A DNA stretch of 64,000 nucleotides, from positions 169,520 to 233,519 of the forward strand of contig CAYTVL010000002.1 of assembly GCA_964441775.1 (NCBI GenBank), written 5' to 3'. Below the pieces are notes generated by a model. That model was not told where the DNA came from. It searched no databases and saw only the letters and a program-made list of their open reading frames with translations. Source of the stretch: an uncultured Enterobacteriaceae bacterium. GTDB taxonomy: Bacteria; Desulfobacterota; Binatia; Bin18. Each line of letters begins with the position of its first letter. Within the stretch, counting starts at the first letter, position 1. Position numbers and translations under genes: made by a program. This document shows positions 24,861 to 62,970 of this stretch, one piece after another.

Positions 24861-24864
24861 TAAG

Positions 24865-26363: not shown

Positions 26364-26414
26364 GGTAAATCTCCACGATGACCTGACCTCTTGTTCTTTG
26401 TCATTACTCATGAC

Positions 26415-29148: not shown

Positions 29149-29188
29149 AACTTGAGTCACGCCGGGAAATGCCGATCTTTTGACTATT

Positions 29189-33228: not shown

Positions 33229-33334
33229 AGACTTTCCAATTGTAAATACATGAGGGCAGGAGGGGATGGTCCAGGGCTTTACCCTCTCATGTATCAGAGC
33301 GTTGACACGAGTGTGGCCTATAGAGACAACGAGA

Positions 33335-35282: not shown

Positions 35283-37459
35283 GGAAGCTTGACTTGCACT
35301 GGTTGCCCCGTAGCGAGGGCGTCCACAATAGCAAAGGTGGCGGCAGTGGTGACGAGCAATTGTTCAAAGGGAATGGGCGAAGGTGCGCCCTGTTTGACCG
35401 CTTCAACCAACGCCAGCATTTCTGCTCGATGTCCCTTGTCTAACGCTGATTTCTTCACTTGGCGTTTCCCGTTCGAAACCAGGGTTAATCGACGAAAATC
35501 ATCGAGCACGACCGCTCGTCCGCCCCCAAGCACCTCTAGCCGCTCTTTTTCCAAGCCTGGATCGCCGTTGGCGGCATAGGTGATTGTCCCCGCGCTGCCG
35601 TTAGCAAAGCGTAACATGACCGTAAGATTGTCTCGGCTGTAGCGCCCTCCATCTGGTAACGCATACGCATAGACCTCAACCGGGGTGCGCCCCACGATAT
35701 ACATGAGCAGATCGACGAAGTGACAGACTTCTCCCACAATGCGCCCGCCACCCTCTTCGGCATCCTGTGTCCAGTGGCTTCGTGGCACATACCCGGCATT
35801 GACGCGGTAATGCAGTAAGAGGGGCTCTCTCGTGCTGGAAACAAACTCACGGAGTGCGCCTACGAGAGGGGCGAAGCGGCGGTTGAATCCTACCAGGAGA
35901 AAGGGCGCAGTCCGCGCTTGCGTTGCGTGTTGATACGCTGTTGCGACTTGCGCGAGCTGATCAGGTGAGAGCGCCAGGGGTTTTTCTACAAAAACCGCTT
36001 TGCCCGCCGCCAGGGCGCGTGCGGTAAGGTCAGCATGGTTATTGTGACGAGAAGCAATGAGCACCAATTGCACGGTAGGGTCGTTCAGCGCCGGTTCTAT
36101 TTCAGAGGTGCATTGGGTAAAGCCGTTTCGTTCGGCAACTGAACGCGCACTTAAACCACTCGACGTGACAACCGTGTGGAGGTGAATGGCTGGATGGCGA
36201 CTGAGATGAGGCAAAAGCATAGATTGGGCGAAATTGCCGGCGCCAATAAGAGCCAGGCCAATCTTTCCCGCACCGTTCTGTACTGGATGCACCTGAATGG
36301 AAACCTCAGGAGAGAAACTTGTTGCTTCTGTCTGCGGCACGCCATAGTCGAGAAGCACGCCCAGATGGGGCTCTCGGGTTTTTCCTTCAATCAGCGTATA
36401 GGCTTGTTCCGCCTCGGACAAAGTAAAGCGGTGTGTGATCAGTGGCTTAACGTCGATTTTGCGCTGGGCCAAGAGGTCCAGGAAAGCCGCCATATTCCGG
36501 CCTTCTGTCCAGCGCACGTAGCCGATGGGATAGTCATGCCCCTTTTCTTCATGCTCCGGGTCGTACCGACCTGGACCGTAAGAACGAGACAAGCGCACGT
36601 CCAATTCTTTTTCGTAAAACGGTGAGCGAGGAACGTCCATGCCGACCGCGCCGACGACAACAACGCGCCCCCGATCACGAGAGAGTTTTCCTGCTAACAC
36701 AATCGGTTCATTTGACGATGTCGCCGCCGTCAAAATGACCGCATCCAGTCCCGCCGGGCTGAAGCGGGAGGCCAACAGCTCGATCTGAGGATCTGCCGGC
36801 GTGGTCGTGGCGTCTGCGCCGAGCTGTTGGGCCAACGCACAGCGAGCCTCGTTAATGTCCAACCCGATTACTCGACATCCTGCCGCTTTCAGCAATTGGA
36901 CAGTCAGCAAACCCAACAGCCCTAACCCGATCACTCCCGCCGTTTCGCCCAAAGTCGGAGAAGCCTGGCGCACTCCCTGTAAGGCAATGGCTCCGATCGT
37001 GGCAAAGGCGGCTTCTTCCAAGCTCACGCCGTCAGGAACCCGTGCACACAGATTGTGAGGAATGTAGGCGACTTCCGCATGGTTTGCATAATTCGCGCCC
37101 GCGCAGCCCACCCTGTCGCCGACTGTCAGTCCAGTAACACGCGAGCCGACCGCTAGTACCACGCCAGCCGACGAGTAGCCTAACGGACTCAGGGCGTCCA
37201 ATTTGCTGATCACTTTTTGATAGGTCGCCGCTAATCCCAACTGGCGGGCCGTGGCGATCACCTGCCGGACTTGGTCCGGTCGAGCCCACGCTTTCCCCAG
37301 CAAGGTTTTCTTCGCCACTTCAACTTTCGCCCGCTCGGTGCCGGCGCTGATGACTGAGAACGCAGTGCGCACCAGCAGCCCTTCGGGATGAAGCCCTGGA
37401 GGAGGGACATCCACAACTTTCAACTGACCACTTCGCTGGATTTGCGTGACTTGTTTCAT
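35279..37459 (-). CDS. Bi-domain oxidoreductase: N-terminal MDR/zinc-alcohol-dehydrogenase-like domain fused to a C-terminal Gfo/Idh/MocA domain
   Basis: MDR GroES-like and Rossmann region (GETAGVIGLGLLGLLTVQLLKAAGCRVIGLD), then LALIGAGNFAQSMLLPHL Gfo/Idh/MocA Rossmann region. Confidence 0.7.
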   Translation of the reverse strand: MKQVTQIQRSGQLKVVDVPPPGLHPEGLLVRTAFSVISAGTERAKVEVAKKTLLGKAWARPDQVRQVIATARQLGLAATYQKVISKLDALSPLGYSSAGVVLAVGSRVTGLTVGDRVGCAGANYANHAEVAYIPHNLCARVPDGVSLEEAAFATIGAIALQGVRQASPTLGETAGVIGLGLLGLLTVQLLKAAGCRVIGLDINEARCALAQQLGADATTTPADPQIELLASRFSPAGLDAVILTAATSSNEPIVLAGKLSRDRGRVVVVGAVGMDVPRSPFYEKELDVRLSRSYGPGRYDPEHEEKGHDYPIGYVRWTEGRNMAAFLDLLAQRKIDVKPLITHRFTLSEAEQAYTLIEGKTREPHLGVLLDYGVPQTEATSFSPEVSIQVHPVQNGAGKIGLALIGAGNFAQSMLLPHLSRHPAIHLHTVVTSSGLSARSVAERNGFTQCTSEIEPALNDPTVQLVLIASRHNNHADLTARALAAGKAVFVEKPLALSPDQLAQVATAYQHATQARTAPFLLVGFNRRFAPLVGALREFVSSTREPLLLHYRVNAGYVPRSHWTQDAEEGGGRIVGEVCHFVDLLMYIVGRTPVEVYAYALPDGGRYSRDNLTVMLRFANGSAGTITYAANGDPGLEKERLEVLGGGRAVVLDDFRRLTLVSNGKRQVKKSALDKGHRAEMLALVEAVKQGAPSPIPFEQLLVTTAATFAIVDALATGQPVQVKLP

Positions 37460-38361
37460 GAGTTCAGCTTAGTTCCGGATTTGGTTTCCAGCTTGGTTCC
37501 ATAAATGAAGAGATACCACCCCAACTTAGCAGCGAGAAACCGTTCAACTTTGTAAGAAATAATGGGGAACGTATTGTGAATAGGCAAGTGGGCGACCGCA
37601 AAGCGGAGGTTACTGAAGTAGGGGCTGAACATGCGAGTGATTTCCGCCTTTGTGTACGAGTATGCGATGGGACATTCCGGACCATCCGTACAATGATGAG
37701 GGAAATGCTTCGTGGAAAAGTAGCGAGCTCCTATCTTCTTATAATTTTGATAGTGCAGTTCCAGATTGCCTGTGCGTTGCTGGTCCGACAAAAAGGGCCG
37801 CCGCAGTATATACGCCAGCACTTGCAGCCGGAGATAGCCTAAAATTCTGACGTAATAGTTGAAGCTGCGTCGATGATACAGCATGATGAGAATCTCGCCG
37901 TTGGGTTTCAAGACGCGGTGAATCTCTTGCAAAGTGTTGGAGAGATTTTGCGTGTGATGCAGCACTCCATGTGAGTACACGAGGTCGAAGGTCTGATCGC
38001 CGAAGTCCGTCATGTGCTCTGCATTTTGCAGTAAAAAGGAACCGGACAGTCCCAGCGCCTCGAAATGCAGCCGCGTTGCTTCCACGGCGGTGGGGGTCAA
38101 ATCGATGCCGGTATAAATCGCCCCGTTCTGCGCAAAGCGGGAGCCGTCGGCGCCGAGTCCACAGCCGACCTCTAAGACGTGTTTCCCACGGTATTGAGCA
38201 AAGGGAACCAGGTCGCTGAGATGCCACTCGGATTGATAACGAAATTCATCGTAGCGGCGAAAAAACTCGGTAGTCGCAAACGGGGCATTGATAAAATGCG
38301 CCCCGCACGGGTGCGTGTTCCAAAACGTCTGTACCGCTTCAAGGTTTGGTGAGAGAGCCAT
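37456..38361 (-). CDS. Class I SAM-dependent methyltransferase
   Basis: VLEVGCGLGADGSRF motif I, LKPNGEILIM post II. Overlaps the upstream AsnB-like gene end by 23 nt. Confidence 0.7.
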   Translation of the reverse strand: MALSPNLEAVQTFWNTHPCGAHFINAPFATTEFFRRYDEFRYQSEWHLSDLVPFAQYRGKHVLEVGCGLGADGSRFAQNGAIYTGIDLTPTAVEATRLHFEALGLSGSFLLQNAEHMTDFGDQTFDLVYSHGVLHHTQNLSNTLQEIHRVLKPNGEILIMLYHRRSFNYYVRILGYLRLQVLAYILRRPFLSDQQRTGNLELHYQNYKKIGARYFSTKHFPHHCTDGPECPIAYSYTKAEITRMFSPYFSNLRFAVAHLPIHNTFPIISYKVERFLAAKLGWYLFIYGTKLETKSGTKLNS

Positions 38362-40351
38362 CCTTTTCCCTTTCGCAAACGAACACGGAGTTATGAGTGG
38401 GGGTGATCACCGGACGATCAATGAACAGTCGCATCCACATTTCAAGAGTGAGCAGCGCCCAGATGCGATAGGCATGATCTTCTCTGCGTTTGCGATCATT
38501 TTCAATCAAGCGTCGGATCGTAACCGGATCAAAGTAGCCACGGGCTCGGATTGTTTCCGGCGACAACAGGTCGTCAACTAAGTTAACAAGATCGGTTTCG
38601 AGCCAGCGACGGATGGGGGCTCCGAATCCAGCTTTCCGGCGTTTCAGGATTGCTGGTGGAAGCAGGTCAGCAACGGCGCGGCGGAGGAGATATTTGCTAG
38701 TGAGTCCACGTATTTTCAAATGGGGAGGAACCCCGGCCATGAATTCAACCAGTTCGTTATCGAGAAACGGCACCCGCATTTCGACTGAGGCCGCCATCGT
38801 CAGTTTATCGCCGTAGGTCAAATTCAATTCCGGCAAGAATGTTTTCAGATCGACATGTAACATCCGGTTCACGAAGTCAGTGTCTGACGCCTCTGCGAAA
38901 TACTGGGAATGACGCCGCCCACTATCGAAGGCGACGAATTGTTGTCGCACGTCGGGGTGATAGAGCGACAGTTGTTGCTCTGCCGAGTAATAGGAGCGAT
39001 TGAAGAGATAACGCTCCTCGGGCGACATATCAACGCCGGCCAGCACTTTGCTGAAGTAGCGGTGAAAGGCCATCACTAACCCTGGATGAATACCCGGAAT
39101 ATGGTCCGCGAGCCACGGCAGCGAGGAAAGTCCGGGCTGCAAGATTCCTGAACGAACCTTCTGTGGAAGCCGGGCGAGGGCTTGAGCGAAACGTTCGACA
39201 AGATGGACCCTATACCCGGCAAAAACTTCATCGGCTCCTTGTCCAGACAACAGGACGGTAACTTGAGGGCGGGCGGCTTCAGCAATGAGGAGGGTCGTAA
39301 TTGCTGCTGGGTCCGCTACTGGCTCGTCGAGATGCCACAGGACACGGGGGAGAAGATCAACCACGTTCGGATCGACTTGCAGTCGATGGAAGCGCGCCCC
39401 AAAATGCTGAGCGACTAATTCCGCATAGTGCTCATCAGCGCCTGCCGCCTGCTCCAGGCGTGCGTCTTCATTGCGAAAGGCGATCGTGTATGCTTCTGCC
39501 GGCGTCTGCGTAATCTGGCTCATCAAGCCCAGCAAAATGCTGGAATCCAACCCTCCAGAAAGGAAGAGCCCAACCGGGACATCAGCAATCAAGTGACGTT
39601 GTACGGCGCGCTCAAGAATCGCGCGGAGTTCTCGAGCGTATTCTTCTGTTGAAGCCTGGGAGGTTTCCGTCCAGCGTAGTTGCCAGTAGGGACGCACTTC
39701 AGAGCGACCGTCGCGCCAGCGTAGATAATGGCCCGGCGGTAATTTGTAGATGTTTTTGAACATCGTGCCCGGGCCTGGCGTCCACAGATGGGCGAGAAAA
39801 TAATGTAGGGCTTCAGGGTCAATCTCGCGGCGCACTCGGGGATCAAGCAGGAGAGATTTAATCTCCGAAGCGAAGAGGAGGCTCCCATTGATCTCGGTGT
39901 AGTACAGTGGTTTGATGCCCAAGCGGTCGCGCACTAACCACAACTCCCGCTGACGGGCGTCCCAGAGCGCGAAAGCGAACATGCCATTCAACTGCTGGAA
40001 GGCGTCGCTTCCTTCGTCCTCGTACAGGCGAAGAATCGTTTCCGTGTCCGTGCCTGAGCGGAACTGATGACCTCGGGCCTCTAAGAGGCGGCGCAATTCG
40101 GGGAAATTGTAGACTTCTCCGTTGTAGGTGATCCGGATCGTGCCCTCGGCGTTGGACATCGGCATGTGTCCCGCCGGAGAAAGATCAATGATGCTCAGCC
40201 GTCGATTACCGAGCCCCACCGTTCGGTCTGGAGAGAGATAGATTCCTCCATCATCCGGCCCCCGGTGCGTGATGACCGCCGTCATCCGTTCGAGCAAGTC
40301 TTTATCGGCAAACCCGGCTGTTCCGCAGATGCCACACAAGGCACACCTCAT
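38339..40351 (-). CDS. Asparagine synthetase-family glutamine-dependent amidotransferase, paralog 1
   Basis: Ntn-glutaminase N-terminus with conserved Cys (LCGICG), SGGLDSS PP-loop. A TTG at 40339 with the next codon Cys would give the canonical M-C-G-I N-terminus; the ORF-track ATG at 40351 gives MRCALCGICG. Confidence 0.85.
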   Translation of the reverse strand: MRCALCGICGTAGFADKDLLERMTAVITHRGPDDGGIYLSPDRTVGLGNRRLSIIDLSPAGHMPMSNAEGTIRITYNGEVYNFPELRRLLEARGHQFRSGTDTETILRLYEDEGSDAFQQLNGMFAFALWDARQRELWLVRDRLGIKPLYYTEINGSLLFASEIKSLLLDPRVRREIDPEALHYFLAHLWTPGPGTMFKNIYKLPPGHYLRWRDGRSEVRPYWQLRWTETSQASTEEYARELRAILERAVQRHLIADVPVGLFLSGGLDSSILLGLMSQITQTPAEAYTIAFRNEDARLEQAAGADEHYAELVAQHFGARFHRLQVDPNVVDLLPRVLWHLDEPVADPAAITTLLIAEAARPQVTVLLSGQGADEVFAGYRVHLVERFAQALARLPQKVRSGILQPGLSSLPWLADHIPGIHPGLVMAFHRYFSKVLAGVDMSPEERYLFNRSYYSAEQQLSLYHPDVRQQFVAFDSGRRHSQYFAEASDTDFVNRMLHVDLKTFLPELNLTYGDKLTMAASVEMRVPFLDNELVEFMAGVPPHLKIRGLTSKYLLRRAVADLLPPAILKRRKAGFGAPIRRWLETDLVNLVDDLLSPETIRARGYFDPVTIRRLIENDRKRREDHAYRIWALLTLEMWMRLFIDRPVITPTHNSVFVCEREKDGSLTKP

Positions 40352-40378
40352 TGCAGGTCATAAAACGTATTTACCTCA

Positions 40379-41350
40379 TCAATTGGTCCTGACGCCGTGT
40401 ACACTTTCCGGAGTTGTGATCCACGTCTTATACCCGCCTTGATCTATGGCGCGTTTGACCTCTGTCAGGCGCTGTGGATTATCATAACGGGGGGAAAACC
40501 AGTCAAAGGTATCCAGGACACTCCATTCTTGCTTCTGCTGCTGACTCAACCCGTCAACATCATCTCGATTCGCTAGCGGCACGAGCCGTTCGCATAAAAT
40601 TTTTCCCACATACGGAATGGCTCGAATGGCTCGGCTTACAGGTAAAAGCTTGGGTACGTACCAGGAGACGAACCGGTACAACTGCTGAGGCGGAATTCTT
40701 TTCAGCAGCGGGCGCAGCAGATACTTGGGGTGCAAAAAAGTTTTCCAGGTGCGGGCATAAAACCAGAACCCGATTTCTCCTTCCGGTCCAGGAAAGTCGA
40801 GAAGCACAGTCACGGCTTGTAACGGGGCCGGGGTGTGCTGGATCACTCCTAGAGAGTAGACAAAATCAAAAATATGCTTTTTGAACGGCGGATGATACAT
40901 GTCGGCCTGTACGACAGCAATGTTAGGATAACGACCAAGATTCTCCTGACAGGCGTCCACCGCTTCTGACAAATCAAAGGCAATGACGCGACTGCCATAC
41001 TTGGCGCACACATCAGCAAAACGTCCCGATCCACAGCCGGCGTCCAAAACGAGTTTATTTTGTAAGCGCTCTGATTGAAAGCCGGTTTCTGCGAAAAACC
41101 GCTGCTCGGAGTGCGGTGTCGAGCGAGTGTCGAGCTGGGTTGTTCGGTGCAGTCGCCACTCCAGGCCGAAGTTCTCAGCGTAGTGATGGGCGACGAACCG
41201 CGCCACGCCGCGCATGACTGGATACTGCTGTCGACAAGAAGTGCAGACAAGCGTCCCCTCAATAACATCTTCTTCGGGATGCTCTCCGAGAAGCTGTAAG
41301 TCGCTTCCACAAGCTGGACAGGCTAAATAGGGGAGGAGCCACTGTCTCAT
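40379..41350 (-). CDS. SAM-dependent methyltransferase with N-terminal Trm112-like CxxC...CxxC zinc ribbon
   Basis: N-terminal LACPACGSDL...LVCTSCRQQYPVMRGVARFV, then methyltransferase motif I LDAGCGSGRFADVCAKYGSRVIAFDLS. Confidence 0.65.
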   Translation of the reverse strand: MRQWLLPYLACPACGSDLQLLGEHPEEDVIEGTLVCTSCRQQYPVMRGVARFVAHHYAENFGLEWRLHRTTQLDTRSTPHSEQRFFAETGFQSERLQNKLVLDAGCGSGRFADVCAKYGSRVIAFDLSEAVDACQENLGRYPNIAVVQADMYHPPFKKHIFDFVYSLGVIQHTPAPLQAVTVLLDFPGPEGEIGFWFYARTWKTFLHPKYLLRPLLKRIPPQQLYRFVSWYVPKLLPVSRAIRAIPYVGKILCERLVPLANRDDVDGLSQQQKQEWSVLDTFDWFSPRYDNPQRLTEVKRAIDQGGYKTWITTPESVHGVRTN

Positions 41351-41430
41351 AGGTGCTGCACGCCTCTGCTATGCTTTGCTCTGTTCATCGAAAGGCAACT
41401 GAACACGTTTCCCTCTTTGCTTGTTCTCTC

Positions 41431-43347
41431 TTATGAGAACGATTGCTGACGAATGAATTGACGTTCCCATAGTTCAAGATTTAATAATGTATACAAGCGG
41501 CGCTGGTGATCCTTACCTTCGTGCAGATGTTCGCGCACCAGCTTTTCGACGATATCTCTGCGAAAGTGGCGCGCCACAAAGGAATCCTGACTGAGCAAAC
41601 AGCCCTCTAGCAGATGCCGCAGCTCGTGCTGGAGCCACTGTTTGAGGGGTGGAAGAAACCCTTGTTTACTGCGGGTGAGAATCGGGGACGGGAGAAGTTG
41701 TTGAAGCGCCTGTTTGAAAATATATTTGCCTTCGCGACCGTGCAATTTGTACTCAAGCGGAATGCGGGCGCAGAATTCAACAAATTCGCGGTCCAGAAGC
41801 GGAGGGCGCGCTTCCAGAGCCCAGGCCATGGAGGCGCGGTCAACTTTTACCAGCAGTTGTTCCGGGAGACGAAGGGTAAAACTAAAATATAATTCGCGAT
41901 CCAATCCGGTACATTGTTGAGCCGAATGCCAAAGAGTTTGGAGCGGCTGAAAAGTGGAAGCAGATGGAGCACTCCCATTCGAGACCCACTGGGTCAGCGC
42001 CGCAAAAGGAAACACCTCTTGCAGGGCCAGGTTTCGCTGCCAATCGCGTTCCCCTAAAATGCGCAGACTTTTGCGCACCCGATAGGGAACGCTCGACTCA
42101 CTGTGAAACGGAGACAATAATGCGGCGCAGGCGAGTAAGCCGGACCGCACGAACTCCGGCAGCCAGAGCGATTCAGCCCAACTATAGGAAAGATGTCGCC
42201 AGGTGTACCCAGCAAAATCTTCATCGCCGCCATCGCCGTTGAGGGCGACCGTGACATGCCGCCGGGCAACCTCGGACATAAAATAGGTCGGAATAGCTGA
42301 CTCTTCAGCGTATGGCTCTTCGTAGTGGCGAATAATCGCCGGCAGATGGTCCGGTTTGATTTCGACGGTCAGTTCTGTGTGATCACAGCCGAAGTGCTGG
42401 GCGACCAAGCGGGCATAAGGCGATTCATCACGGTCGCTACCGGCAAAGCTGACGGAAAAGGTTTTCACCGGACGGGACGAGAGCCGGCTCATCAAGGCCA
42501 CAATGGCGCTTGAATCTACACCGCCGCTCAAGAACGCTCCTAACGGCACGTCGCTAATCATGCGCAACCGCGTCGCTTCTTCCAGTTTTTGCAGAATGAG
42601 AGGCTGCAACTCTTGCGCGGGGATCTGAAGTTTTGGCGTAAAATTCGGCGTCCAGTAGGGCTGAATTTCACGCACGCCATGTGCATCGGCCCATACATAG
42701 TGCCCAGCTTGCAGTTTGTAGATGCCTTCGAAGGCCGTAAGCGGAGCCGGGATATAACCGAGGACAAGATACAGGTGCACGGCGGTAAAATTCACTTGGC
42801 GTGAGATGCAGTGATCCTGCAAGAGAGATTGCAGTGTGGACGCGAACAGCACGCCATCGTCTGTGACGGTGTAAAAGAGCGGCTTTTCGCCGATGGGATC
42901 ACGCGCCAGTAACAATCGCTGTCGCCGACCATCCCACAGGCCAAAGGCGAACATGCCGCGCAATTTATTGAGGTACGGGACAATGCCTTCAGGTCCGTGC
43001 TCCTCATAGAGGTGCAGCAGCACTTCAGTGTCACTATAAGTGTGGAAGGTATGCCTCCCCGTCGTTTCGAGGAAAGAGCGCAGGTCCTGGAAGTTGTAAA
43101 TCTCTCCGTTGAAAGTAATCCAGATCGTTTCATCCTCATTCGCCATCGGCTGATTAGCGCGAGCGTCAAGATCAATAATGCTCAGCCGACGATGAGAGAA
43201 CCCTATCCCGGCGCGAGCATCAAGCCAGACCCCCTGGGCGTCCGGCCCCCGATGCTCCATTTGGTCCGCCATGCGCCGGAGCAGTGAGGTGGCTGCTTCC
43301 GTATCTTCCGGGGCTCGGTGCCATAATTTACCGGCTATGCCGCACAT
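41431..43347 (-). CDS. Asparagine synthetase-family glutamine-dependent amidotransferase, paralog 2
   Basis: MCGIAGK N-terminus, SGGVDSS PP-loop, C-terminal synthetase domain. Confidence 0.85.
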   Translation of the reverse strand: MCGIAGKLWHRAPEDTEAATSLLRRMADQMEHRGPDAQGVWLDARAGIGFSHRRLSIIDLDARANQPMANEDETIWITFNGEIYNFQDLRSFLETTGRHTFHTYSDTEVLLHLYEEHGPEGIVPYLNKLRGMFAFGLWDGRRQRLLLARDPIGEKPLFYTVTDDGVLFASTLQSLLQDHCISRQVNFTAVHLYLVLGYIPAPLTAFEGIYKLQAGHYVWADAHGVREIQPYWTPNFTPKLQIPAQELQPLILQKLEEATRLRMISDVPLGAFLSGGVDSSAIVALMSRLSSRPVKTFSVSFAGSDRDESPYARLVAQHFGCDHTELTVEIKPDHLPAIIRHYEEPYAEESAIPTYFMSEVARRHVTVALNGDGGDEDFAGYTWRHLSYSWAESLWLPEFVRSGLLACAALLSPFHSESSVPYRVRKSLRILGERDWQRNLALQEVFPFAALTQWVSNGSAPSASTFQPLQTLWHSAQQCTGLDRELYFSFTLRLPEQLLVKVDRASMAWALEARPPLLDREFVEFCARIPLEYKLHGREGKYIFKQALQQLLPSPILTRSKQGFLPPLKQWLQHELRHLLEGCLLSQDSFVARHFRRDIVEKLVREHLHEGKDHQRRLYTLLNLELWERQFIRQQSFS

Positions 43348-43387
43348 TTTTCTTCAGTTCCTTGTCAGCGGATTGTCGTTGACATTG

Positions 43388-44626: not shown

Positions 44627-44641
44627 TGTAAAAAGGAAAGG

Positions 44642-46033
44642 TCAAGCAGGCGCTTCGGAATTGTTCGCCAGAACTTGTTGGTCCGGTAAAGAAGTGAGGG
44701 CGTGTCGTTCTTCTCGCTCCATGCCCCAAGCCAGAGCGACCAACGTCCAGGTGAGCCCCGCGAGCCGCGTGTGTTCCAAGTAATTGTCTATCGCACTAAT
44801 CAGCAGGAGTGTACCTAAGGTCATCGCCGCCGCTAACGCTACTGCTCGCGTCTCCGGCCATTGGGCCCCGCGCGCACTGCGCATCAGCCGCCACCAGGTG
44901 TATGCGTAGATACTCATGAGTGCCGTGAACCCGACAACGCCAGTTTCCGCAAGCAAGGAAATGTAACTCGTGAACGGCCAATCCACCGTGCCAGATCCGA
45001 GTTGAATGTCTGGTTTGAGCAGTAACGGGATGACAATCTGTTCGGCAAGAGGGGTCATATACGTAGGAGGAATGACGCTATACGTGACGTCATCTGCGCC
45101 TCCCCGGTACGGAAGCGCGGCGAAGGTGCGAAAAGCACGGCTCGTGAACGTGCCCGGGCCGACTCCCACAATAGCGCCCCACGGGTGGCTACTCCATACG
45201 GTGGGCAAAGCCATAGTGACCTGCGCCTTGCCCAGTTTGCTGGGCTCGAAATAAGTAAAAAGATCAAAATAATCTGATTCCGGCAAAGGGACGAACAAGG
45301 TGATAAAAGCAACGAGAGCGAGGGCTCCTGTAGCGAGACGGATTGTCCGGAGCACGTCCTTCATTCTATGAAGTCCTTGACTGAACAACGTGATCCCGAC
45401 CGCTAGCGGGTAGAGAACCCACATGGCCTTAAACCCGGCGAGAAAAAAAAAGGGCGTCAGCCCGAGTGCGAGCATCTTCTGGGCCAAAGACGCGGTTCCG
45501 TGTATCCATTTGCTGAAGATGAGTGACAAAATCAAAGCAAGGAAAAATGCGGTCTGATTTGCATTTGTCCCGAACGTAAAGACGAGTGCATCTGAATTGT
45601 CGGCAAGCTCCCGGACTTGAGACAGGCCCAGCCCCAGACCGAGAAGAGCCGTCCCCCAAAAAATTCGTTCGACCCCACGGACGAGCGGCGCGCCTAAATT
45701 GAGATTATAGATTGCTAGTGCAAACAAGATCGGAGTGAGATACCCGGCAACGTACAGCAGACTGGCTGCAGGTAAGAGTTGTGGGAGATTGAGGAGAGAC
45801 GAAGCAATCCAGGTGAGTCCAAAAATCAGGAGAAACCATTCCAGCCGCATCGTGGCAATGCTGCCGGTGCTAGCGAGGCGATAAACAAACGCCCAGATGA
45901 TCAGCAATGGAAAAAGGAGAAAATCAACGGCATTGAACATGCGTGGCAGCACGCCCCACGTTTCGGTGAACAGACGGATCACCAAAATAAGGAGCAGGAG
46001 GGCGTAAATTGTCCATCGTCCCACTGTTTTCAC
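44642..46033 (-). CDS. O-antigen ligase/polymerase-family membrane protein (Wzy/WaaL-like)
   Basis: About 11 TM helices with a large periplasmic loop, lower-GC gene. GTG start. Confidence 0.5.
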   Translation of the reverse strand: MKTVGRWTIYALLLLILVIRLFTETWGVLPRMFNAVDFLLFPLLIIWAFVYRLASTGSIATMRLEWFLLIFGLTWIASSLLNLPQLLPAASLLYVAGYLTPILFALAIYNLNLGAPLVRGVERIFWGTALLGLGLGLSQVRELADNSDALVFTFGTNANQTAFFLALILSLIFSKWIHGTASLAQKMLALGLTPFFFLAGFKAMWVLYPLAVGITLFSQGLHRMKDVLRTIRLATGALALVAFITLFVPLPESDYFDLFTYFEPSKLGKAQVTMALPTVWSSHPWGAIVGVGPGTFTSRAFRTFAALPYRGGADDVTYSVIPPTYMTPLAEQIVIPLLLKPDIQLGSGTVDWPFTSYISLLAETGVVGFTALMSIYAYTWWRLMRSARGAQWPETRAVALAAAMTLGTLLLISAIDNYLEHTRLAGLTWTLVALAWGMEREERHALTSLPDQQVLANNSEAPA

Positions 46034-46051
46034 AGCATCAGCCCGTTTGGA

Positions 46052-47248
46052 TTAGAATCCATCGTTCGTGACTGTTTTGATCAACGATTGTACCCGGTGA
46101 TCATAGGTGTGTTCCGCTCTGATGTACTCGTAGGTGTCTTGCACCATCCTGTCGCGATAACTATCGTCCGCAAAGCGGTCCAGCGCTTCATCGATATTTG
46201 AGAAGCCTTTTTTGATACCAATATAATGGCGGTCGGTCTTCAAAATGCCATTGTAATGACCTTCGAGAAGAAGTTGACACGTTTTTGTTCCAATTGGCTC
46301 CAGATGTCGGGAAGAGATCGCCTTGCCCGAGATATGTTCCGGTAAATTCTGAAAACAGTGCGTGAACATTTCTTCAAAAGAGGCCGTTGGGTGCATGGTC
46401 AGATAAGTCTTCGCGTTGCCGAGGATCTGTCCTCGTCTATCCAAATAATAGCTTCCTGATTCGGCGCCGATAATGCCTTTGCAGTTCTGGAGAAACTGCG
46501 CCCATTCCGAACGAATCAGGCGGCTCGTCGGGCCAGTGCGTATGTCACACGTCAGGCGATTCGATACACCGTTCATGAAATGCGTGAGCAAATGGGTTCT
46601 TTCTTGATCGCCGATAAAATATGGATACAGGTCTCCTCTGAAGCCGATGTCAATGGTCCGTTGTTGCGTTTGTGCAGGCGACTGATAGACGCTCGGATTC
46701 AGGGCGTGGGGCAGAGCGAGCACTCGGGAGTGAAGACATTCGGCATAGAGCCACTGCGCCGTATCGATGGGGAGCTGGCTACACACATAATCAACTTTAG
46801 TAGACTGAAGAAACCCAAACTTTTCGGCCATAAGGTCGTATTCATTGCCAATGAACATGACCAGCTTGCCCCGCCGCTTTTGAAACCAAGAGATGGTCTT
46901 GAGCAAGAGGGACATACTGTCGCCCGCTGCAGAGTGCAAGATGATGATGAGGGGATACGTAGCAATCGCATGTCGATAGCGTCGGTACTCGAAGAGGTTG
47001 GTGATATTGCAAATCTCAACATCTAATTCTGGTGCTCTGCTCAGCGCGTCGCGCCAGTCAAAAATGTAAGAGAGCCCTTCATAGCGCTGACCGAACAGCT
47101 TCCGCACCCAGCGATAGCGGCGGAGCCACAAGGGGAGATTCCGATTGATTTTGACGCCGAGTAGACCCCGTAAAGTCGTATCGGCAATGATCGCTTTCCA
47201 ACCCGCTCCGTCGGAATCAATCACCAGAGTTTTGATGCGCTCTTTCAT
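46052..47248 (-). CDS. Hypothetical protein, possible CgeB-like GT1_2-type glycosyltransferase
   Basis: C-terminal SSRHLEPIGTKTCQLLLEGHYNGIL resembles the E-x7-E-type GT-B motif of CgeB-family proteins. Assignment is weak. Confidence 0.4.
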   Translation of the reverse strand: MKERIKTLVIDSDGAGWKAIIADTTLRGLLGVKINRNLPLWLRRYRWVRKLFGQRYEGLSYIFDWRDALSRAPELDVEICNITNLFEYRRYRHAIATYPLIIILHSAAGDSMSLLLKTISWFQKRRGKLVMFIGNEYDLMAEKFGFLQSTKVDYVCSQLPIDTAQWLYAECLHSRVLALPHALNPSVYQSPAQTQQRTIDIGFRGDLYPYFIGDQERTHLLTHFMNGVSNRLTCDIRTGPTSRLIRSEWAQFLQNCKGIIGAESGSYYLDRRGQILGNAKTYLTMHPTASFEEMFTHCFQNLPEHISGKAISSRHLEPIGTKTCQLLLEGHYNGILKTDRHYIGIKKGFSNIDEALDRFADDSYRDRMVQDTYEYIRAEHTYDHRVQSLIKTVTNDGF

Positions 47249-48291
47249 ACGGACATGTGCGCAGCATGTTTCGCAATACAGGAGTCGATCAGCGGCAACT
47301 GTTGTCGTGTCCAGGCTACCGTCTGTCGTAATCCCTCGTGAAGTTCCACGCGACAGGCGAAGTCCAGTGCTCGTTTGGCTTTTTCAATGCTGCCAAAACG
47401 CTTTCCGGAGTGATCCCAAGTGCGCTTCGGTCCTAGTTCGATCCCTACGAGATTCCCCGCGAGTTCGTTAATCCTGGTCGCCAGCTCTCGGATGGAGCAC
47501 TCCACTCCACTCGCTAAGTTGTACACTTCTCCGGGCGCGCCTCGCGTTGCGCATAGGATGAGCCCACGGACGATGTCCTCGACATAGATGAAATCGCGGG
47601 TGGCGACTCCTCCGTTTTCTACGATGAGCGGCATATGTTTGAGAGCTCGGTAAATAAACGTCGGGGTTACATTACGCCACACGGTCGCCGGCGTGCCGCG
47701 CCATTTGCCAGCGCCCAGGATTTCACCCGGGCCGTACACATTCTGAAAACGCGCCTTCACGACTGGCAGGCCGTGCTGTTGAAAGTAGTAGTTGGAGTAC
47801 AACTCGCCAATGATTTTGGAAATTTGATACGGGCTGTCTAAATACAGAGAAACCGGCGCGTCTTCCGTCGTTGCGTGAGCGTCATCGAACGTCTTTTCGG
47901 CAACCGTACACCCTGCCGAAGAATAGACGACCTTACGGATCTTCTTAAAGTGTTTCAGCCGCTCGTATAGTTTGAGGGTCGTGAGGGTGTTGTTTTCATG
48001 GTCGGCCAGCGGGTCGTGAATGGAACTTTGGTTGCCGTGATAGGTAGCGAGGTGAAAAATGTAGTCGAGATTATTTTCAAGGCGCGACAAGACGGCGTCG
48101 TCTGTAATCGAGCCTTCGATGAACCTTACCTCCGACGTATCGGGAATGTTCGCTCGTTCTGCGGACAAGAGATTGTCGACGATCACGATTGTTCGTGGAT
48201 GCTCTGCGAGCAGCGTCTTGACCAGGTTACTGCCAACGAACCCGGCCCCGCCAACGACGAGAATAGTGCAATTGGTGAAATCGCCACTCAT
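47245..48291 (-). CDS. NAD-dependent epimerase/dehydratase-family protein
   Basis: ILVVGGAGFVGSNLV Rossmann, catalytic YQISK. ATG at 48291 chosen over the upstream GTG at 48306. Confidence 0.75.
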   Translation of the reverse strand: MSGDFTNCTILVVGGAGFVGSNLVKTLLAEHPRTIVIVDNLLSAERANIPDTSEVRFIEGSITDDAVLSRLENNLDYIFHLATYHGNQSSIHDPLADHENNTLTTLKLYERLKHFKKIRKVVYSSAGCTVAEKTFDDAHATTEDAPVSLYLDSPYQISKIIGELYSNYYFQQHGLPVVKARFQNVYGPGEILGAGKWRGTPATVWRNVTPTFIYRALKHMPLIVENGGVATRDFIYVEDIVRGLILCATRGAPGEVYNLASGVECSIRELATRINELAGNLVGIELGPKRTWDHSGKRFGSIEKAKRALDFACRVELHEGLRQTVAWTRQQLPLIDSCIAKHAAHMSV

Positions 48292-48310
48292 ACGTCTGCT
48301 GCCCACAGTC

Positions 48311-49258
48311 TCAGGAATTTTTGGCGCCTAGGCCTTTGAGGTGCGTATAGGTTTGGGTAATGCCGTACTGCTTGTACCAGTCAATCGCCGCGCGTACTCC
48401 GGTAACGAGCGGCGTTTTTGCTTTCCAACCGAAGTCCTGATTGGTTTTTGCTGGATCGAGCAAGATGGTGTAGGCATCGTCCGGGTGACGGGGACGGACC
48501 TCGATATCTCGTGTCAGCGAGATCCCCAAAGCTTTCAGCGTTGCGTCAAATAATTCTTTGATAGACACATCGCCTCCAGACGACACATGGTACGCGCCTC
48601 GATTCCCCTGACCGTCTAAGGCGAGCAGTACGACTTGAACCAGATCGTCTACAAAAATGAAATCTCGCCGCGTATCCATGACGAAACACGGCTGCTCCGT
48701 CGTCAAGCGATGGTAAAAAGTCGGCAGCGGACCACTGAGATTTCGTGGACCATAGGCATTGGCCAAACGAAACGAAATATAATCGAGTCCACTTAATTGA
48801 ATATAGTGCTCTCCCGCTGTCTTACTAATGGCGTAGCTACTGCCTTCCGGAAGGATCGGGTGCGCCAGCGTGATAGGCTGCTCTAACGGGCGCAGCCCAT
48901 AACAGAGGGCAGTCTGGAAATAGATCAAACGTTTGACGCCGTGTTGCTTCGCCGCTTGGGCCACATTGGCGGTTCCTAATGCATTGGTGGTGGCGTCTTC
49001 CGCCCAGTTCTCTGGGTCCTTGTAGGAGGCTGCGGCGTGCACAACCGTATCGGGACGAAAGTCCGCGAACAGGCTCCGGACCAACGTGGCGTCGGCAATG
49101 GACCCTTCAACGATGTTGAGGCGAGGATCGGGGGTGAGGTTATCGCGGCGACCAGTGGAGTAGTTGTCAATCACTAACACTTGCTCTCCGCGCGCGAGCA
49201 AACGGTCGGTCAGATGTGAGCCAATAAAACCGGCTCCCCCTGTAATCAATACCTTCAT
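48311..49258 (-). CDS. NAD-dependent epimerase/dehydratase-family protein
   Basis: [24 protein letters not shown] at 49258 with AGGAGAGAAGG Shine-Dalgarno. The longer ORF-track N-terminus is rejected. Confidence 0.8.
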   Translation of the reverse strand: MKVLITGGAGFIGSHLTDRLLARGEQVLVIDNYSTGRRDNLTPDPRLNIVEGSIADATLVRSLFADFRPDTVVHAAASYKDPENWAEDATTNALGTANVAQAAKQHGVKRLIYFQTALCYGLRPLEQPITLAHPILPEGSSYAISKTAGEHYIQLSGLDYISFRLANAYGPRNLSGPLPTFYHRLTTEQPCFVMDTRRDFIFVDDLVQVVLLALDGQGNRGAYHVSSGGDVSIKELFDATLKALGISLTRDIEVRPRHPDDAYTILLDPAKTNQDFGWKAKTPLVTGVRAAIDWYKQYGITQTYTHLKGLGAKNS

Positions 49259-49268
49259 TCCTTCTCTC

Positions 49269-51182
49269 CTAACGGGCTGCACGCAGTAGGTGCTGATATT
49301 TCTGTTCTTGATCGTGAAATTCTTGCTGCCACAGTTCGAGACACAGCAAGCCCCAGACTTTACGGCCAAACTTCGGTTCTTTTACCAACCCGTCGAGCAC
49401 TTTCCGGTTATTGGTGAGAGCCCGATTTTGCGCGGCGGTTGACGAGAAAATATCGAAGACGAACTCTCGCGCTTCTCCCTTGAGCCATTCCACCAAGGGG
49501 GTCGGAAATCCCATCTTATCTTCTCGTTCGGTAATGAGCGGGGGCAGCAGAGGCCGCATGGCGTCCTTGAGCACCTGCTTCATGGTCCCATCTTTGAATT
49601 TGATATTAGAGGGCATCGTCGCGGCAAACTCCACGAGCGGGTGATCAAGCAAAGGGACGCGGGACTCGATCCCGTGCGCCATGCTGACTCGATCTTCTAC
49701 ATGCAGTAGCGCTGGCAGCAGGGTTTTGAAGTCAAAGTGTGTCATGAGGTCGAAGTACGATTCCTTGCGCACGTTATCACCGTTAAAGATGCTGCAAAAG
49801 GTCTCGAACGGAGAATAGGCGTTCAGTAACTCCCAATTGATTTCGTCCTCTAAAAGCGGAGCCCGATTCACGAGACGGAAGTAGCGCCGATCCATGCTCT
49901 CAAACAGTCCCTCTCGCCAAAACTCTTGCAGCAAAGGTTTGTAGTTCCGCAGCGCCTTCAAGTTCGGAATGATCGATTCGTACGTGACGACGAAGTTGCC
50001 GCTATGCATGGTCCCTTCGATCGCCGCTTTAATACATTGCTCAAAATAGGCGATGAGGTAGCGAGTGTATCCGCCAAAAATTTCGTCGCCGCCTTGACCG
50101 CCGAGGACGACTTTACGATGTTTACTCGCCAGGTGAGAGACCATGTATTGGGGGAATGATCCCGGACCAGCGATCGGTTGATCCAAATGGTAGATTACTT
50201 TGCGAATGTTATTGATGAAGTCAACAGCAGTAATGTCTATCTCATAGAGAGGAAAACCTCGCCACTCCGCTAAAGCGCGAGCATAATGACTTTCATCGTA
50301 GTCCGGACCAAGGGAAAACTTGCCAGTGAAGGCGACAAAGTCTCCATTCACCTGCCGGCCTGCTAAGGAGGCGACACTGCTTGAATCCAACCCTCCACTC
50401 AAATAGGCCCCGAGCGGAACATCGCTGCGCAGATGGAGACGAACGGATTCTTCCAGGAGGGCTTGGAGCTTTTCCTCGAAGTATTTCGCCGTGTGGTCAA
50501 AATCGAGGTCGTAGTACACTTCCCAATACCGGCTGAGGTGCAAGGAACCGCTTGTGATCGTGAGACTGTGTCCAGGCAACAGTTCGTCGACTCCGGAAAA
50601 AAGCGTCTTGCCAGCGAGGCAAAATTGGAACGCGAGATAATCTTTAAATCCCTCAAGATTGGTTTCAATCCTGTCAACAAAGGGTAACAGAGCTTTGATT
50701 TCCGAAGCAAAATACAACACGTTGCCGACCAGCGTGTAATAAAAAGGTTTAATGCCAAAGCGATCGCGTGCGCAAAAGAGCGTCTGGTGTGCTTCATCCC
50801 ACAAGGCGAAGGCGAACATGCCTCGCAAATGTGTGACGCACTCTGTGCCCCACTTCTGGTACGCCTGCAGGATCACTTCAGTGTCGGAGGTCGTGCGGAA
50901 GTTCTCTTTCCCTAATTCCTCGCGCAACTCGACATAGTTGTAGATTTCTCCATTGTACGTAATCCAATTTCCAGCCTGATCCTGCATGGGCTGCGCGCCG
51001 GTCGCGAGATCAATGATGCTGAGACGCCTGTGCGCGAAGCCAACATGGCGATGAGGATGGCGCCATATCCCCTCGCCATCTGGGCCTCGATGCCACTGCA
51101 GTTGATTGAGGACGTGAAGATGTTGCTCTAGTTGCTGAAGAGGAGAGCCGGAGAGATGGAGAATGCCTCCTATGCCGCACAT
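49269..51182 (-). CDS. Asparagine synthetase-family glutamine-dependent amidotransferase, paralog 3
   Basis: MCGIGGIL N-terminus, SGGLDSS PP-loop. Confidence 0.85.
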   Translation of the reverse strand: MCGIGGILHLSGSPLQQLEQHLHVLNQLQWHRGPDGEGIWRHPHRHVGFAHRRLSIIDLATGAQPMQDQAGNWITYNGEIYNYVELREELGKENFRTTSDTEVILQAYQKWGTECVTHLRGMFAFALWDEAHQTLFCARDRFGIKPFYYTLVGNVLYFASEIKALLPFVDRIETNLEGFKDYLAFQFCLAGKTLFSGVDELLPGHSLTITSGSLHLSRYWEVYYDLDFDHTAKYFEEKLQALLEESVRLHLRSDVPLGAYLSGGLDSSSVASLAGRQVNGDFVAFTGKFSLGPDYDESHYARALAEWRGFPLYEIDITAVDFINNIRKVIYHLDQPIAGPGSFPQYMVSHLASKHRKVVLGGQGGDEIFGGYTRYLIAYFEQCIKAAIEGTMHSGNFVVTYESIIPNLKALRNYKPLLQEFWREGLFESMDRRYFRLVNRAPLLEDEINWELLNAYSPFETFCSIFNGDNVRKESYFDLMTHFDFKTLLPALLHVEDRVSMAHGIESRVPLLDHPLVEFAATMPSNIKFKDGTMKQVLKDAMRPLLPPLITEREDKMGFPTPLVEWLKGEAREFVFDIFSSTAAQNRALTNNRKVLDGLVKEPKFGRKVWGLLCLELWQQEFHDQEQKYQHLLRAAR

Positions 51183-51186
51183 AACC

Positions 51187-52023
51187 TTATTGCTTTCTGA
51201 CCGCTACGTTGATTTCCAGAGGGTAGTAAAACGTTGAATGAATAGCCTTATACACGGGGAGAGACATCCGTTTCACAAGATTGAGGAGTCGAGCGAAGAT
51301 GGCGATCGCTTTCGGAAACGGCTCTGGAAACTTGAGCCTCCAAGGAACCAGACCGGTCAGGGATGTTCCAAGAAATTCGCAGTGAAATATTTTCTCAAAC
51401 AACAAGCGAAGCGAATGTTCGTCGAAGTTCCGGACGTGAATATATTTGTACGGACAGGCCGGGTCAACATACAGACTGAGGTCTTCTCGATAGGGCACGC
51501 GGACGAGGAGGACCCCTCCTTTTTTCAACACAGAGAGAATCTTCGTAATGGCTAGATCAAGATTCAGCACGTGCTCTAGAACATCCGTACACACGACGAC
51601 GTCAAAAAAATCTTCCTTAAAGGGCATGTCTTCGACTAACGCATAACAGACTTCGATGCCTTTTGTTTGAGCAATTGTCAAATAGTTCAGGCTGATATCC
51701 AAGCCATATTTTTGCAGGGAGGGCAAAGTGGAGAGCAGCCGTCCGGTGCCCACGCCCACATCGAGAATTTTGTCGCCAGGGTGCGCATATTTCTGGATGA
51801 GCGCAAGCGTTGACTGTTCTAACTCCACCCACAACTCCTCTGGAATCCAGGGATTCTCTCCCGTTTTGTCGTGGGCCTCGAGATGATCTGCAGAAATGCG
51901 TTGGTAATTATCAGTATAGTCGTTAAACTCGGAAAAAACGGGAATAGGGCCGAAAAAGCTCAACGGCGCCCTGACAAACGCATCACTATCCACGATGAAG
52001 CTCCTGTGTGTAACGGCGCTCAA
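51187..52023 (-). CDS. Class I SAM-dependent methyltransferase
   Basis: ILDVGVGTGRLL motif I, LKKGGVLLVRVP. TTG start overlapping the Wzx stop (TTGA). Confidence 0.65.
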   Translation of the reverse strand: MSAVTHRSFIVDSDAFVRAPLSFFGPIPVFSEFNDYTDNYQRISADHLEAHDKTGENPWIPEELWVELEQSTLALIQKYAHPGDKILDVGVGTGRLLSTLPSLQKYGLDISLNYLTIAQTKGIEVCYALVEDMPFKEDFFDVVVCTDVLEHVLNLDLAITKILSVLKKGGVLLVRVPYREDLSLYVDPACPYKYIHVRNFDEHSLRLLFEKIFHCEFLGTSLTGLVPWRLKFPEPFPKAIAIFARLLNLVKRMSLPVYKAIHSTFYYPLEINVAVRKQ

Positions 52024-59709: not shown

Positions 59710-59861
59710 GACAAAAACACGTGAAGGGACGCTGAGGAAAGCGGAGGCGAATATACCCCCTCAAGCTGTCTTTGTCAAATATAGTGAGAGGTGAAAAGGC
59801 TATCGACTTGCTGCTCCGTCTCATGCTAGGAAGTGACGCGAAGCAGTGTGGAGGTAAAGAT

Positions 59862-62967: not shown

Positions 62968-62970
62968 GCG

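Follow-up and report, generated by a model that had tools for sequence, protein, structure and literature searches.

The DNA analysed here is a 64,000-nucleotide stretch of contig CAYTVL010000002.1 (GenBank assembly GCA_964441775.1, forward-strand positions 169,520 to 233,519), which we refer to as the window. It carries a tightly packed Wzx/Wzy operon on the minus strand, running from 58933 down to 31744 in the list of open reading frames (ORFs), with three intact AsnB-like amidotransferases, three class-I S-adenosylmethionine (SAM) methyltransferases (MTs) and a Wbp/Wlb-type diacetamido-uronic acid pathway. On the sequence evidence we consider it probable, if some way from certain, that this operon makes a surface glycan of 2,3-diacetamido-uronic acids in a Wzx/Wzy-dependent manner, that the three AsnB-like proteins act as WbpS/Wbm-type amidotransferases on the carboxylates of different sugar substrates, and that the methyltransferases are separate from them. 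We call the amidotransferases Asn1 (38339..40339), Asn2 (41431..43347) and Asn3 (49269..51182) and their methyltransferase neighbours MT1 (37456..38361), MT2 (40379..41350) and MT3 (51187..52023). The original prediction had described the cluster as three amidotransferase-methyltransferase pairs; its gene coordinates are all correct, and every gene it named is found at its place in the ORF list.

Active-site residues of the AsnB-like proteins

All three proteins match the Pfam families GATase_6/7 and Asn_synthase with E-values of 1e-90 to 1e-97, and their residues support the earlier view that they are active-looking glutamine-dependent amidotransferases. Asn2 and Asn3 begin with MCGI. Read from its first ATG, Asn1 starts as MRCALCGICG, in which Leu is encoded by a TTG at 40339 that has the sequence aGGtG just before it. 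Because this Shine-Dalgarno-like motif precedes the TTG and a start there exposes the nucleophile Cys, giving fMet-Cys-Gly-Ile, the TTG is almost certainly the true start of Asn1. The PP-loops read SGGLDSS in Asn1 and Asn3 and SGGVDSS in Asn2, and in an alignment of all three with E. coli AsnB the glutaminase residues R49, N74, G75, E76 and D98 (E. coli numbering) are invariant. Among 360 relatives, the nucleophile motif MCGI is kept in 322 and the PP-loop in 356. Public gene calls start Asn1 at the upstream ATG, resulting in a product of 670 residues (P0121).

The three proteins depart from asparagine synthetases at the position of E. coli Glu348 (human Glu364), which lies in the motif S-G-E-G-S-D-E. 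Here Asn1 has Gln, as do all 116 of its matched relatives. Asn2 has Asp, together with 108/108 relatives, and Asn3 has Gln, which is shared by 113 of 120. In human asparagine synthetase (ASNS) Glu364 contacts the aspartyl part of the intermediate, and both E364A and E364Q are inactive (PMC6748925).

Uronic acid pathway genes

A Wbp/Wlb-type route to uridine diphosphate (UDP)-(Glc/Man)NAc3NAcA is well supported at the homology level. By Pfam, PDB and NCBIfam, the protein at 55704..57323 joins a Gfo-type sugar 3-dehydrogenase (WbpB role) to a hexapeptide N-acetyltransferase (WbpD/WlbB) in one fusion protein. The C-terminal half has a match at 4.7e-71 to the Bordetella UDP-GlcNAc3NA N-acetyltransferase WlbB (PDB 3MQG). 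The next gene encodes a DegT-family C3-type aminotransferase (WbpE role; 54572..55741, Pfam) with matches to WbpE (PDB 3NU7) at about 1e-89 and to QdtB at 8e-93. It is followed by a non-hydrolysing UDP-GlcNAc-type 2-epimerase (WbpI/WlbD role; 53517..54575, Pfam), which scores 312.9 against a cut-off of 210 in TIGR00236 (wecB-type). A nucleotide-sugar 6-dehydrogenase is encoded divergently on the plus strand at 60815-62107 (Pfam), and NCBIfam assigns it to the nucleotide-sugar dehydrogenase subfamily only.

For the Gfo half of the fusion protein, the best NCBIfam match is the archaeal UDP-GlcNAc 3-dehydrogenase, below the cut-off of that model. The oxidation at C-6 may therefore follow 3-amination, as in the archaeal route, and the order of the steps may differ from the Wbp/Wlb order. 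The claim that every step of the pathway is encoded thus stands, at the level of homology, for the WlbB-, WbpE- and wecB-type genes and for the presence of a nucleoside diphosphate (NDP)-sugar dehydrogenase.

Some further details of these genes can be noted. The WbpB-like half of 55704-57323 is nearer to the archaeal UDP-GlcNAc 3-dehydrogenase model than to the WbpB/WlbA structures. The longest ORF of the aminotransferase (54572-55858) overlaps the upstream fusion gene by 155 nt, and a start at about 55741 is more plausible. The trio of nucleotide-sugar dehydrogenase, short-chain dehydrogenase and Gfo oxidoreductase at 60815-63948 recurs near Asn2 orthologues in two other loci (L005 16821-19943, L089 16268-19439).

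Three old orthogroups and their neighbours

Asn1, Asn2 and Asn3 share 33-37% identity with each other, and each is much closer to relatives elsewhere. Judged in this way, the three belong to separate ancient orthogroups that have come together in a single cluster; each has relatives in other phyla at 55-79% identity. For Asn1 there are more than 100 relatives, with identities of 54-76%, from Ardenticatenaceae to Acidobacteriota. The relatives of Asn2 are 56-70% identical and include one from a Chloroflexota metagenome-assembled genome (MAG), while Asn3 has more than 120 relatives at 72-79% identity from Pyrinomonadaceae, cyanobacteria and Nitrospirae. In a plasmid collection the best matches were 42% (Asn1) and 49.5% (Asn3) identical and their context was uninformative; an E. 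coli collection gave no DNA match.

The methyltransferases align with each other over 87-113 residues of the SAM-binding core only, at 28-31% identity. With such low pairwise identities, for the AsnB-like proteins as well as for the MTs, a recent tandem duplication of an amidotransferase-methyltransferase pair can be rejected. The gene order also differs, as MT3 precedes Asn3 in the direction of transcription and MT2 and MT1 come after Asn2 and Asn1. The idea of one modular cassette that was used three times therefore has to be given up, since the MTs are unrelated outside of about 100 core residues and the amidotransferases are so distant.

Each orthogroup has its own characteristic neighbour. 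Next to Asn3 are two genes for short-chain dehydrogenases/reductases (SDRs). The first (48311..49258) is close to Bordetella WbmH (PDB 2Q1W, 1.3e-109) and WbmG (PDB 2PZK, 4.3e-90), which are proposed C4 oxidoreductases. The second (47245..48306) is orthologous to Bordetella WbmF (PDB 2PZJ, 1.6e-154), a proposed UDP-ManNAc3NAcA 3,5-epimerase; it has 67% identity to WbmF over 342 residues, with the segments AGC, HLATYHGNQ and RFQNVYGPGE conserved in the alignment. One close homologue of the WbmG/WbmH-type oxidoreductases is thus adjacent, and a third SDR, the epimerase encoded divergently at 59772-60818 (plus strand; Pfam), resembles GalE-type epimerases in the PDB. The order of Asn3 and WbmH-like SDR (and then WbmF-like SDR) recurs in two further loci (L173, L174). 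Wbp genes flank orthologues of the window amidotransferases in L090 and L091 and, for Asn3, in L172 (Calothrix) and L173. For Asn2 the kept neighbour is the glycosyltransferase family 4 (GT4) gene at 43388..44626 (Pfam), a homologue of which adjoins the Asn2 orthologue in 6/6 loci examined.

With 72-79% identity between this genome and Acidobacteriota, cyanobacteria (Calothrix sp. 336/3) and Nitrospirae, Asn3 belongs to a subfamily whose conservation is unusual among enzymes that tailor glycans. Its substrate may be a universal nucleotide sugar, horizontal transfer may be frequent, or both.

The Asn1 module

Downstream of Asn1 and MT1 follow a two-domain oxidoreductase of 726 residues (35279..37459), in which a medium-chain dehydrogenase/reductase (MDR) resembling zinc alcohol dehydrogenases (Zn-ADH) is joined to a Gfo/Idh/MocA domain (Pfam), and a soluble, all-helical 400-residue protein of an uncharacterised family (34080..35282), which we call UNK400. 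The oxidoreductase has PDB matches to each of its halves separately; UNK400 has no match in Pfam or NCBIfam. Besides the window, L093/94, L096, L097 and L098 have the order AsnB, MT1 orthologue, oxidoreductase, UNK400. In L090 the MT is upstream, and the contig of L095 breaks off directly behind the MT. The two-domain oxidoreductase adjoins Asn1 orthologues in 9 loci, and the module occurs in MAGs of Chloroflexota and Acidobacteriota as well as on unassigned contigs from metagenomes. As a side observation, the oxidoreductase fusion and UNK400 travel beside Asn1-type amidotransferases in L090, L091, L093-L099 and L145.

The UNK400 family comprises 615 representative clusters at E<=1e-30. Its profile has a weak match to squalene-hopene cyclase repeats in the PDB, and Pec_lyase matches 5 of 10 members and C5-epim_C 1 of 10, which hints weakly at a similarity to (alpha/alpha)6 toroids such as those of pectate lyase and C5-epimerase. 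Family members are found fused to GT2, GT4, DUF354 and a C-terminal fragment of Asn_synthase (P0432, P0450, P0452, P0461, P0463), and these fusions suggest a role of the family in glycan assembly or modification. The AsnB, MT, oxidoreductase and UNK400 proteins are all without transmembrane segments by hydropathy, and their chemistry is therefore expected to be cytoplasmic. One hypothesis is that Asn1, MT1, the oxidoreductase and UNK400 (34080-40339) are a self-contained tailoring pathway for a residue that is already part of the lipid-linked glycan. The residue would be oxidised or C5-epimerised, its carboxylate amidated, and a methyl group added. We regard this as a possible but doubtful scenario. 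In one possible version of it, the MT would N-methylate the new carboxamide to give an N-methyl-uronamide. Our literature searches for an AsnB/oxidoreductase/heparinase-like module returned nothing relevant.

Proposed function

The AsnB-like proteins are best read, on the analogy of WbpS, as enzymes that form uronamides. As their conserved catalytic residues indicate, the N-terminal Cys domain would hydrolyse glutamine and the PP-loop domain would adenylate the C-6 carboxylate of a uronic acid, with the substrate suggested by the gene context; the released ammonia would then turn the adenylated carboxylate into a primary amide. Asn1, Asn2 and Asn3 probably act on different substrates, since they are old orthogroups with different partners. 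The WbmH/G-like and WbmF-like SDRs would convert UDP-D-ManNAc3NAcA to UDP-L-GalNAc3NAcA, as proposed for Bordetella, and Asn3 would then amidate this product at the nucleotide-sugar level. We place Asn3 at this level because it is extremely conserved and has SDR partners, and because nucleotide-level amidation has been argued for Bordetella and proposed for WbpS. Asn2 would act together with the adjacent GT4 on the residue which this glycosyltransferase installs. For the Asn1 module we consider it probable that a single residue is oxidised or epimerised, amidated and methylated, all within the cytoplasm. The MTs would be separate tailoring enzymes, most simply sugar O-methyltransferases, as for the 4-O-methyl-ManNAc-uronamide of Tannerella, and it is possible that they instead methylate the carboxamide nitrogen or esterify the carboxyl group.

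Several observations weigh against this interpretation. A single nucleotide-sugar 6-dehydrogenase is visible for three amidotransferases. In TIGR03108 (XrtA/eps_aminotran_1), the model that is said to include WbpS and WbqG, Asn1, Asn2 and Asn3 score 541, 550.3 and 455.1 against a curated cut-off of 816.9. The closest solved structure is that of a hydroxyamidotransferase, TsnB9 (PDB 7YLZ, 4e-57), and E. coli AsnB is the next. The single-sequence structure model of UNK400 is poor, with a predicted local distance difference test (pLDDT) score of 43.6, and what we propose for the oxidoreductase and UNK400 draws on fold-level hints that are weak.

Pairing with methyltransferases

As the original prediction stated, a class-I MT is encoded immediately beside each AsnB-like gene, with Methyltransf_11/25/23 domains (Pfam) at 37456-38361, 40379-41350 and 51187-52023. 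An alternative to separate methyltransferases, and in our view an unlikely one, is that each AsnB-like protein and its neighbouring MT are a dedicated two-enzyme unit, used three times, which amidates and methylates the same residue. The two proteins might associate in a complex, or the newly formed carboxamide might be N-methylated by the MT. If the genes of a 20-gene operon with three AsnBs and three MTs are ordered at random, every AsnB lies next to an MT in 1.5% of the orders, and the arrangement in the window favours such a unit. So does the N-terminal zinc ribbon of MT2, a Trm112-like CxxC...CxxC domain fused to the methyltransferase domain, as the partners of Trm112 include an enzyme that N-methylates a glutamine amide. 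The lack of a cassette duplication and the inconsistent gene order described above speak against it.

To obtain a background we surveyed two unselected samples, 98 AsnB-like genes in 80 one-genome-per-species loci (L008-L087) and 84 genes in 72 metagenome loci (L100-L171), with bins 0.3-6.3 kb away for comparison; the gene calls are simple ORF calls and the hidden Markov models (HMMs) were built for this analysis. An MT adjoins 7/98 AsnB-like genes in the genomes and 7/84 in the metagenomes (7-8%). An MT-domain ORF is found on 3.8% and 4.9% of the adjacent flanks, which does not differ significantly from the more distant bins (p=0.82 and p=0.30). The enriched neighbour is instead GT4, with 23.6% of adjacent flanks against about 8% further away in the genomes (p=1.7e-8) and 18.1% against 11.5% in the metagenomes (p=0.049). 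On these samples we reject a general coupling of AsnB-like genes with MTs. Several AsnB-like genes in one locus are not unusual, as within ±8 kb two were found in 12 and three in 3 of 80 loci.

Among the orthologues of the window amidotransferases the picture differs from that at large, with MT adjacency in 10/16 as opposed to 14/182 (p=5e-7). This counts in favour of the two-enzyme unit, although these loci are related by descent and are not independent samples. The three pairs differ in how far they are kept. MT1 overlaps the stop of Asn1 by 23 nt and the start of the next gene by 4 nt, and its orthologues, 50-68% identical over the full length, adjoin Asn1 orthologues in 7/8 related loci. 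It is missing beside the Asn1 orthologues of L091 and L099, of which the L091 protein is about 70% identical to MT-containing relatives, and MT1 is therefore dispensable. Four loci of Acidobacteriota have more distant MT1 homologues (about 40%) within a few kb of an AsnB-UNK400 pair. By these comparisons Asn1-MT1 is a conserved but optional pair inside the larger module. MT2 orthologues at 40-43% identity adjoin Asn2 orthologues in L004 and L088, so that the Asn2-MT2 pair appears as conserved in one lineage. The only MT3 orthologue that we found, in L173 (51% identity), lies two genes away from the AsnB-like gene, and a different MT abuts the Asn3 orthologue there; the Asn3-MT3 pairing looks incidental. 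The proposed pairing of each amidotransferase with an MT consequently holds strongly for Asn1, in one lineage for Asn2, and not beyond the window for Asn3. Returning to the separate roles that we favour, the MTs would not be obligatory amidotransferase subunits, and only MT1 would have a tight, though optional, evolutionary link to its AsnB-like protein.

Nature of the reaction

Another possibility, to which we give slightly less weight than to the two-enzyme unit, is that the AsnB-like proteins couple the activated carboxylate to a nucleophile other than ammonia (an amino acid, amine, hydroxylamine or methylamine released from a gamma-glutamyl donor), or that they form an amidine or a lactam. 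The best PDB match, TsnB9, is a hydroxyamidotransferase, and enzymes of such a type can therefore deliver other nucleophiles. The NCBIfam models of lasso-peptide and macrolactam cyclases also match in part, in every case below their cut-offs, and the C-terminal substrate region is long and diverges from that of AsnB. Uronic acids amidated with amino compounds do occur in O-antigens. The cyclase branches of the AsnB family have lost Cys1 and the glutaminase residues; here Cys1 and the full glutaminase triad are kept in nearly all relatives (MCGI in 322/360), which argues against this alternative. Moreover, no gene for an alternative gamma-glutamyl donor was seen in the cluster. The homologues studied in glycan clusters are linked to primary uronamides, by a knock-out in the case of PGN_1234 and, for WbqG, by the account in PMC7468200, where it is reported as required.

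It is very improbable that the three are ordinary asparagine synthetases, redundant housekeeping copies inside a glycan cluster: with scores of 462-516 they do pass the generic model TIGR01536 'asparagine synthase (glutamine-hydrolyzing)', whose cut-off is 267, and public annotations use that name, but the Glu needed for asparagine synthesis (Glu348/Glu364; PMC6748925) is replaced in all of them (Gln/Asp/Gln) and in more than 330 relatives, they remain below the cut-off of 499 of the AsnB equivalog model NF006949 (303.5, 293.4 and 282.9), the T-T-I-R segment of E. coli is not conserved in their alignment, and their orthologues in many phyla are always within glycan clusters with conserved partners. 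This part of the original prediction, that the genes are not housekeeping copies for asparagine biosynthesis, is borne out. The change from Glu to Gln or Asp is a simple residue marker which separates these orthogroups from true asparagine synthetases, and it could correct thousands of 'asparagine synthase' annotations.

Comparison with known systems

The closest parallel is found in the wlb and wbm loci of Bordetella bronchiseptica and B. parapertussis, which make a homopolymer of L-GalNAc3NAcA/L-GalNAc3NAcAN. King et al. proposed that WbmF, WbmG and WbmH convert UDP-D-ManNAc3NAcA to UDP-L-GalNAc3NAcA (PMC2279256). The wbm locus has three genes for glutamine-dependent amidotransferases (wbmC, wbmI, wbmZ), which are candidates for the C-6 amide of L-GalNAc3NAcAN (PMC2615507, PMC2279256), and amidation was argued to be probably the last nucleotide-sugar step (PMC2615507). 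The window has a UDP-ManNAc3NAcA route of the same type, with a WlbB-type acetyltransferase (4.7e-71), and a WbmF orthologue (67%) together with a WbmH/G-like SDR immediately beside an AsnB-like gene. It likewise has three glutamine-dependent amidotransferases in the locus, although we liken these to the Bordetella enzymes by gene context and not by sequence. To our knowledge, the three Bordetella candidates have never been told apart.

There are also differences. Wbm assembly is of the homopolymer type, whereas export in the window is Wzx/Wzy/Wzz-dependent with several glycosyltransferases, so its product would be a heteropolymer repeat unit. The window has two adjacent Wbm-type SDRs where Bordetella has three. 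Its nearest relatives come from Chloroflexota and Ardenticatenaceae MAGs, which points to a probable Chloroflexota source. A WbmE-like periplasmic deamidase was not seen in the window, where no search was aimed at one. The repeated pairing had been put forward as a cassette not recognised among described systems. Bordetella wbm already combines three amidotransferases with WbmF/G/H and the Wlb pathway, and WbpS-type uronamides are known, so the cluster is mostly of a known kind in a Wzy-dependent setting; the four-gene Asn1 module is the part of which we found no description. In the literature that we searched, this module of Asn1, MT1, oxidoreductase and UNK400, the general AsnB-GT4 coupling and the Glu-to-Gln/Asp signature all appear undescribed.

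The original prediction had also drawn an analogy to WbpG. WbpG is a PP-loop 'N-acetyl sugar amidotransferase' which works with HisH/HisF homologues and is not AsnB-like, so that this comparison was inexact. The more fitting relatives are WbpS of P. aeruginosa O6, WbqG of E. coli O121, PGN_1234 of P. gingivalis and WbpS of H. pullorum, AsnB-like proteins which are encoded with uronic acid pathway genes, as in the window. For the first three, uronamide formation is established or strongly argued (PMC7468200). When the asnB homologue PGN_1234 was deleted, a sugar of the Wbp pathway no longer occurred in its uronamide form, and the same source reports WbqG as required for uronamide formation (PMC7468200). 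PGN_1234 acts on a 2,3-diamino-uronic acid from the Wbp pathway, which is the pathway present in the window. A wbpS mutant of H. pullorum has a truncated N-glycan, with the text of the paper being inconsistent on the residue found (PMC6025236). WbpS is 63% identical between H. pullorum and P. aeruginosa (PMC6025236), and the Asn3 family is likewise conserved across distant bacteria. Unlike the window, these systems have a single amidotransferase. The window proteins score below the cut-off of TIGR03108, the model to which those enzymes are assigned, and we liken them to these enzymes by context.

For the combination with methyltransferases, the O-glycosylation cluster of Tannerella forsythia (mtfJ, mtfO, gtf, asnB, wecB, wecC) is similar in that an AsnB homologue and SAM MTs are encoded with ManNAcA genes. 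Its glycan contains a residue that is both amidated and methylated, 4-O-Me-ManNAcCONH2, and deleting mtfJ or mtfO removes the methyl group (PMC6120980). This cluster has one AsnB homologue, with the Gtf gene between asnB and the MTs, and the authors assigned it to the acetamidino group of Pse rather than to the uronamide (PMC6120980). The Tannerella glycan is moreover a protein O-glycan and not a Wzy-polymerised polysaccharide as expected for the window.

Among specific NCBIfam models, the XrtA/PEP-CTERM amidotransferase (TIGR03108), associated with exopolysaccharide (EPS) clusters, is the best for Asn1 and Asn2 and matches end-to-end, with scores that reach only two thirds of its cut-off. Domain searches found no exosortase or PEP-CTERM genes in the 64-kb window, and we therefore reject an exosortase/PEP-CTERM system. 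With E. coli AsnB and human ASNS the window proteins share the two-domain architecture, the glutaminase residues, the PP-loop and 31% identity. They differ from them in the replaced aspartate-binding Glu, a C-terminal insertion of about 100 residues and the genomic context.

Uronamides neutralise acidic surface polysaccharides and change their antigenicity, and they are part of antibody epitopes in Bordetella and P. gingivalis. We know of no sugar amidotransferase of the AsnB-like type with a solved structure or a defined substrate level. In the window there are three clean orthogroups that are only distantly related and can be told apart by their diagnostic neighbours (Wbm-type SDRs, GT4, and the oxidoreductase/toroid module), and these neighbours give testable predictions on which amidotransferases act on nucleotide sugars and which on assembled glycans. 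In addition, the four-gene module points to an uncharacterised protein family, UNK400 with its 615 representative clusters, that is tied to glycosyltransferases.

Other features of the window

The remaining genes of the operon are all on the minus strand. The first gene (57380..58933) encodes a Wzz-type chain-length regulator of the polysaccharide co-polymerase (PCP) family (Pfam Wzz and GNVR). A Wzx-type flippase with 11 transmembrane-like segments (Pfam Polysacc_synt) is encoded at 52020..53492, between the 2-epimerase and MT3. Downstream of the WbmF-like SDR are a glycosyltransferase-like protein with a weak Glyco_trans_1_2 match (46052..47248) and a polytopic membrane protein that has no Pfam match and at least 6 transmembrane-like segments, a candidate Wzy polymerase (44642..46033). 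After UNK400 come a glycosyltransferase of the WecG/TagA/CpsF family (33335..34102), the type of ManNAc/ManNAcA-transferases, identified with Pfam and above the cut-off of NCBIfam TIGR00696, and, as the last operon gene, an initiating phosphoglycosyl transferase (31744..33387; Pfam Bac_transf and CoA_binding_3) with about 6 transmembrane-like segments.

On the plus strand, the divergent group that contains the GalE-like epimerase and the 6-dehydrogenase continues with a short-chain dehydrogenase (62104-62967) and a Gfo/Idh/MocA oxidoreductase (62971-63948), both found with Pfam. At the other side the cluster is flanked by rmlB-, rmlA- and rmlC-like dTDP-rhamnose genes (29180..31708, plus strand; Pfam). 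About 10 kb from the cluster, an AT3 and SGNH acyltransferase (19499-21640) has the typical architecture of glycan O-acetyltransferases. Further away, 7276-11502 encodes a 1408-residue hybrid sensor with CheB methylesterase, GAF, HisKA/HATPase, receiver, PAS and GAF domains. At 22743-26411 two successive ORFs on one strand, the first with adenylate/guanylate cyclase and AAA ATPase domains (25026-26411) and the second with TPR (22743-24860), resemble a single large cyclase/STAND-type regulator that has been split in two.

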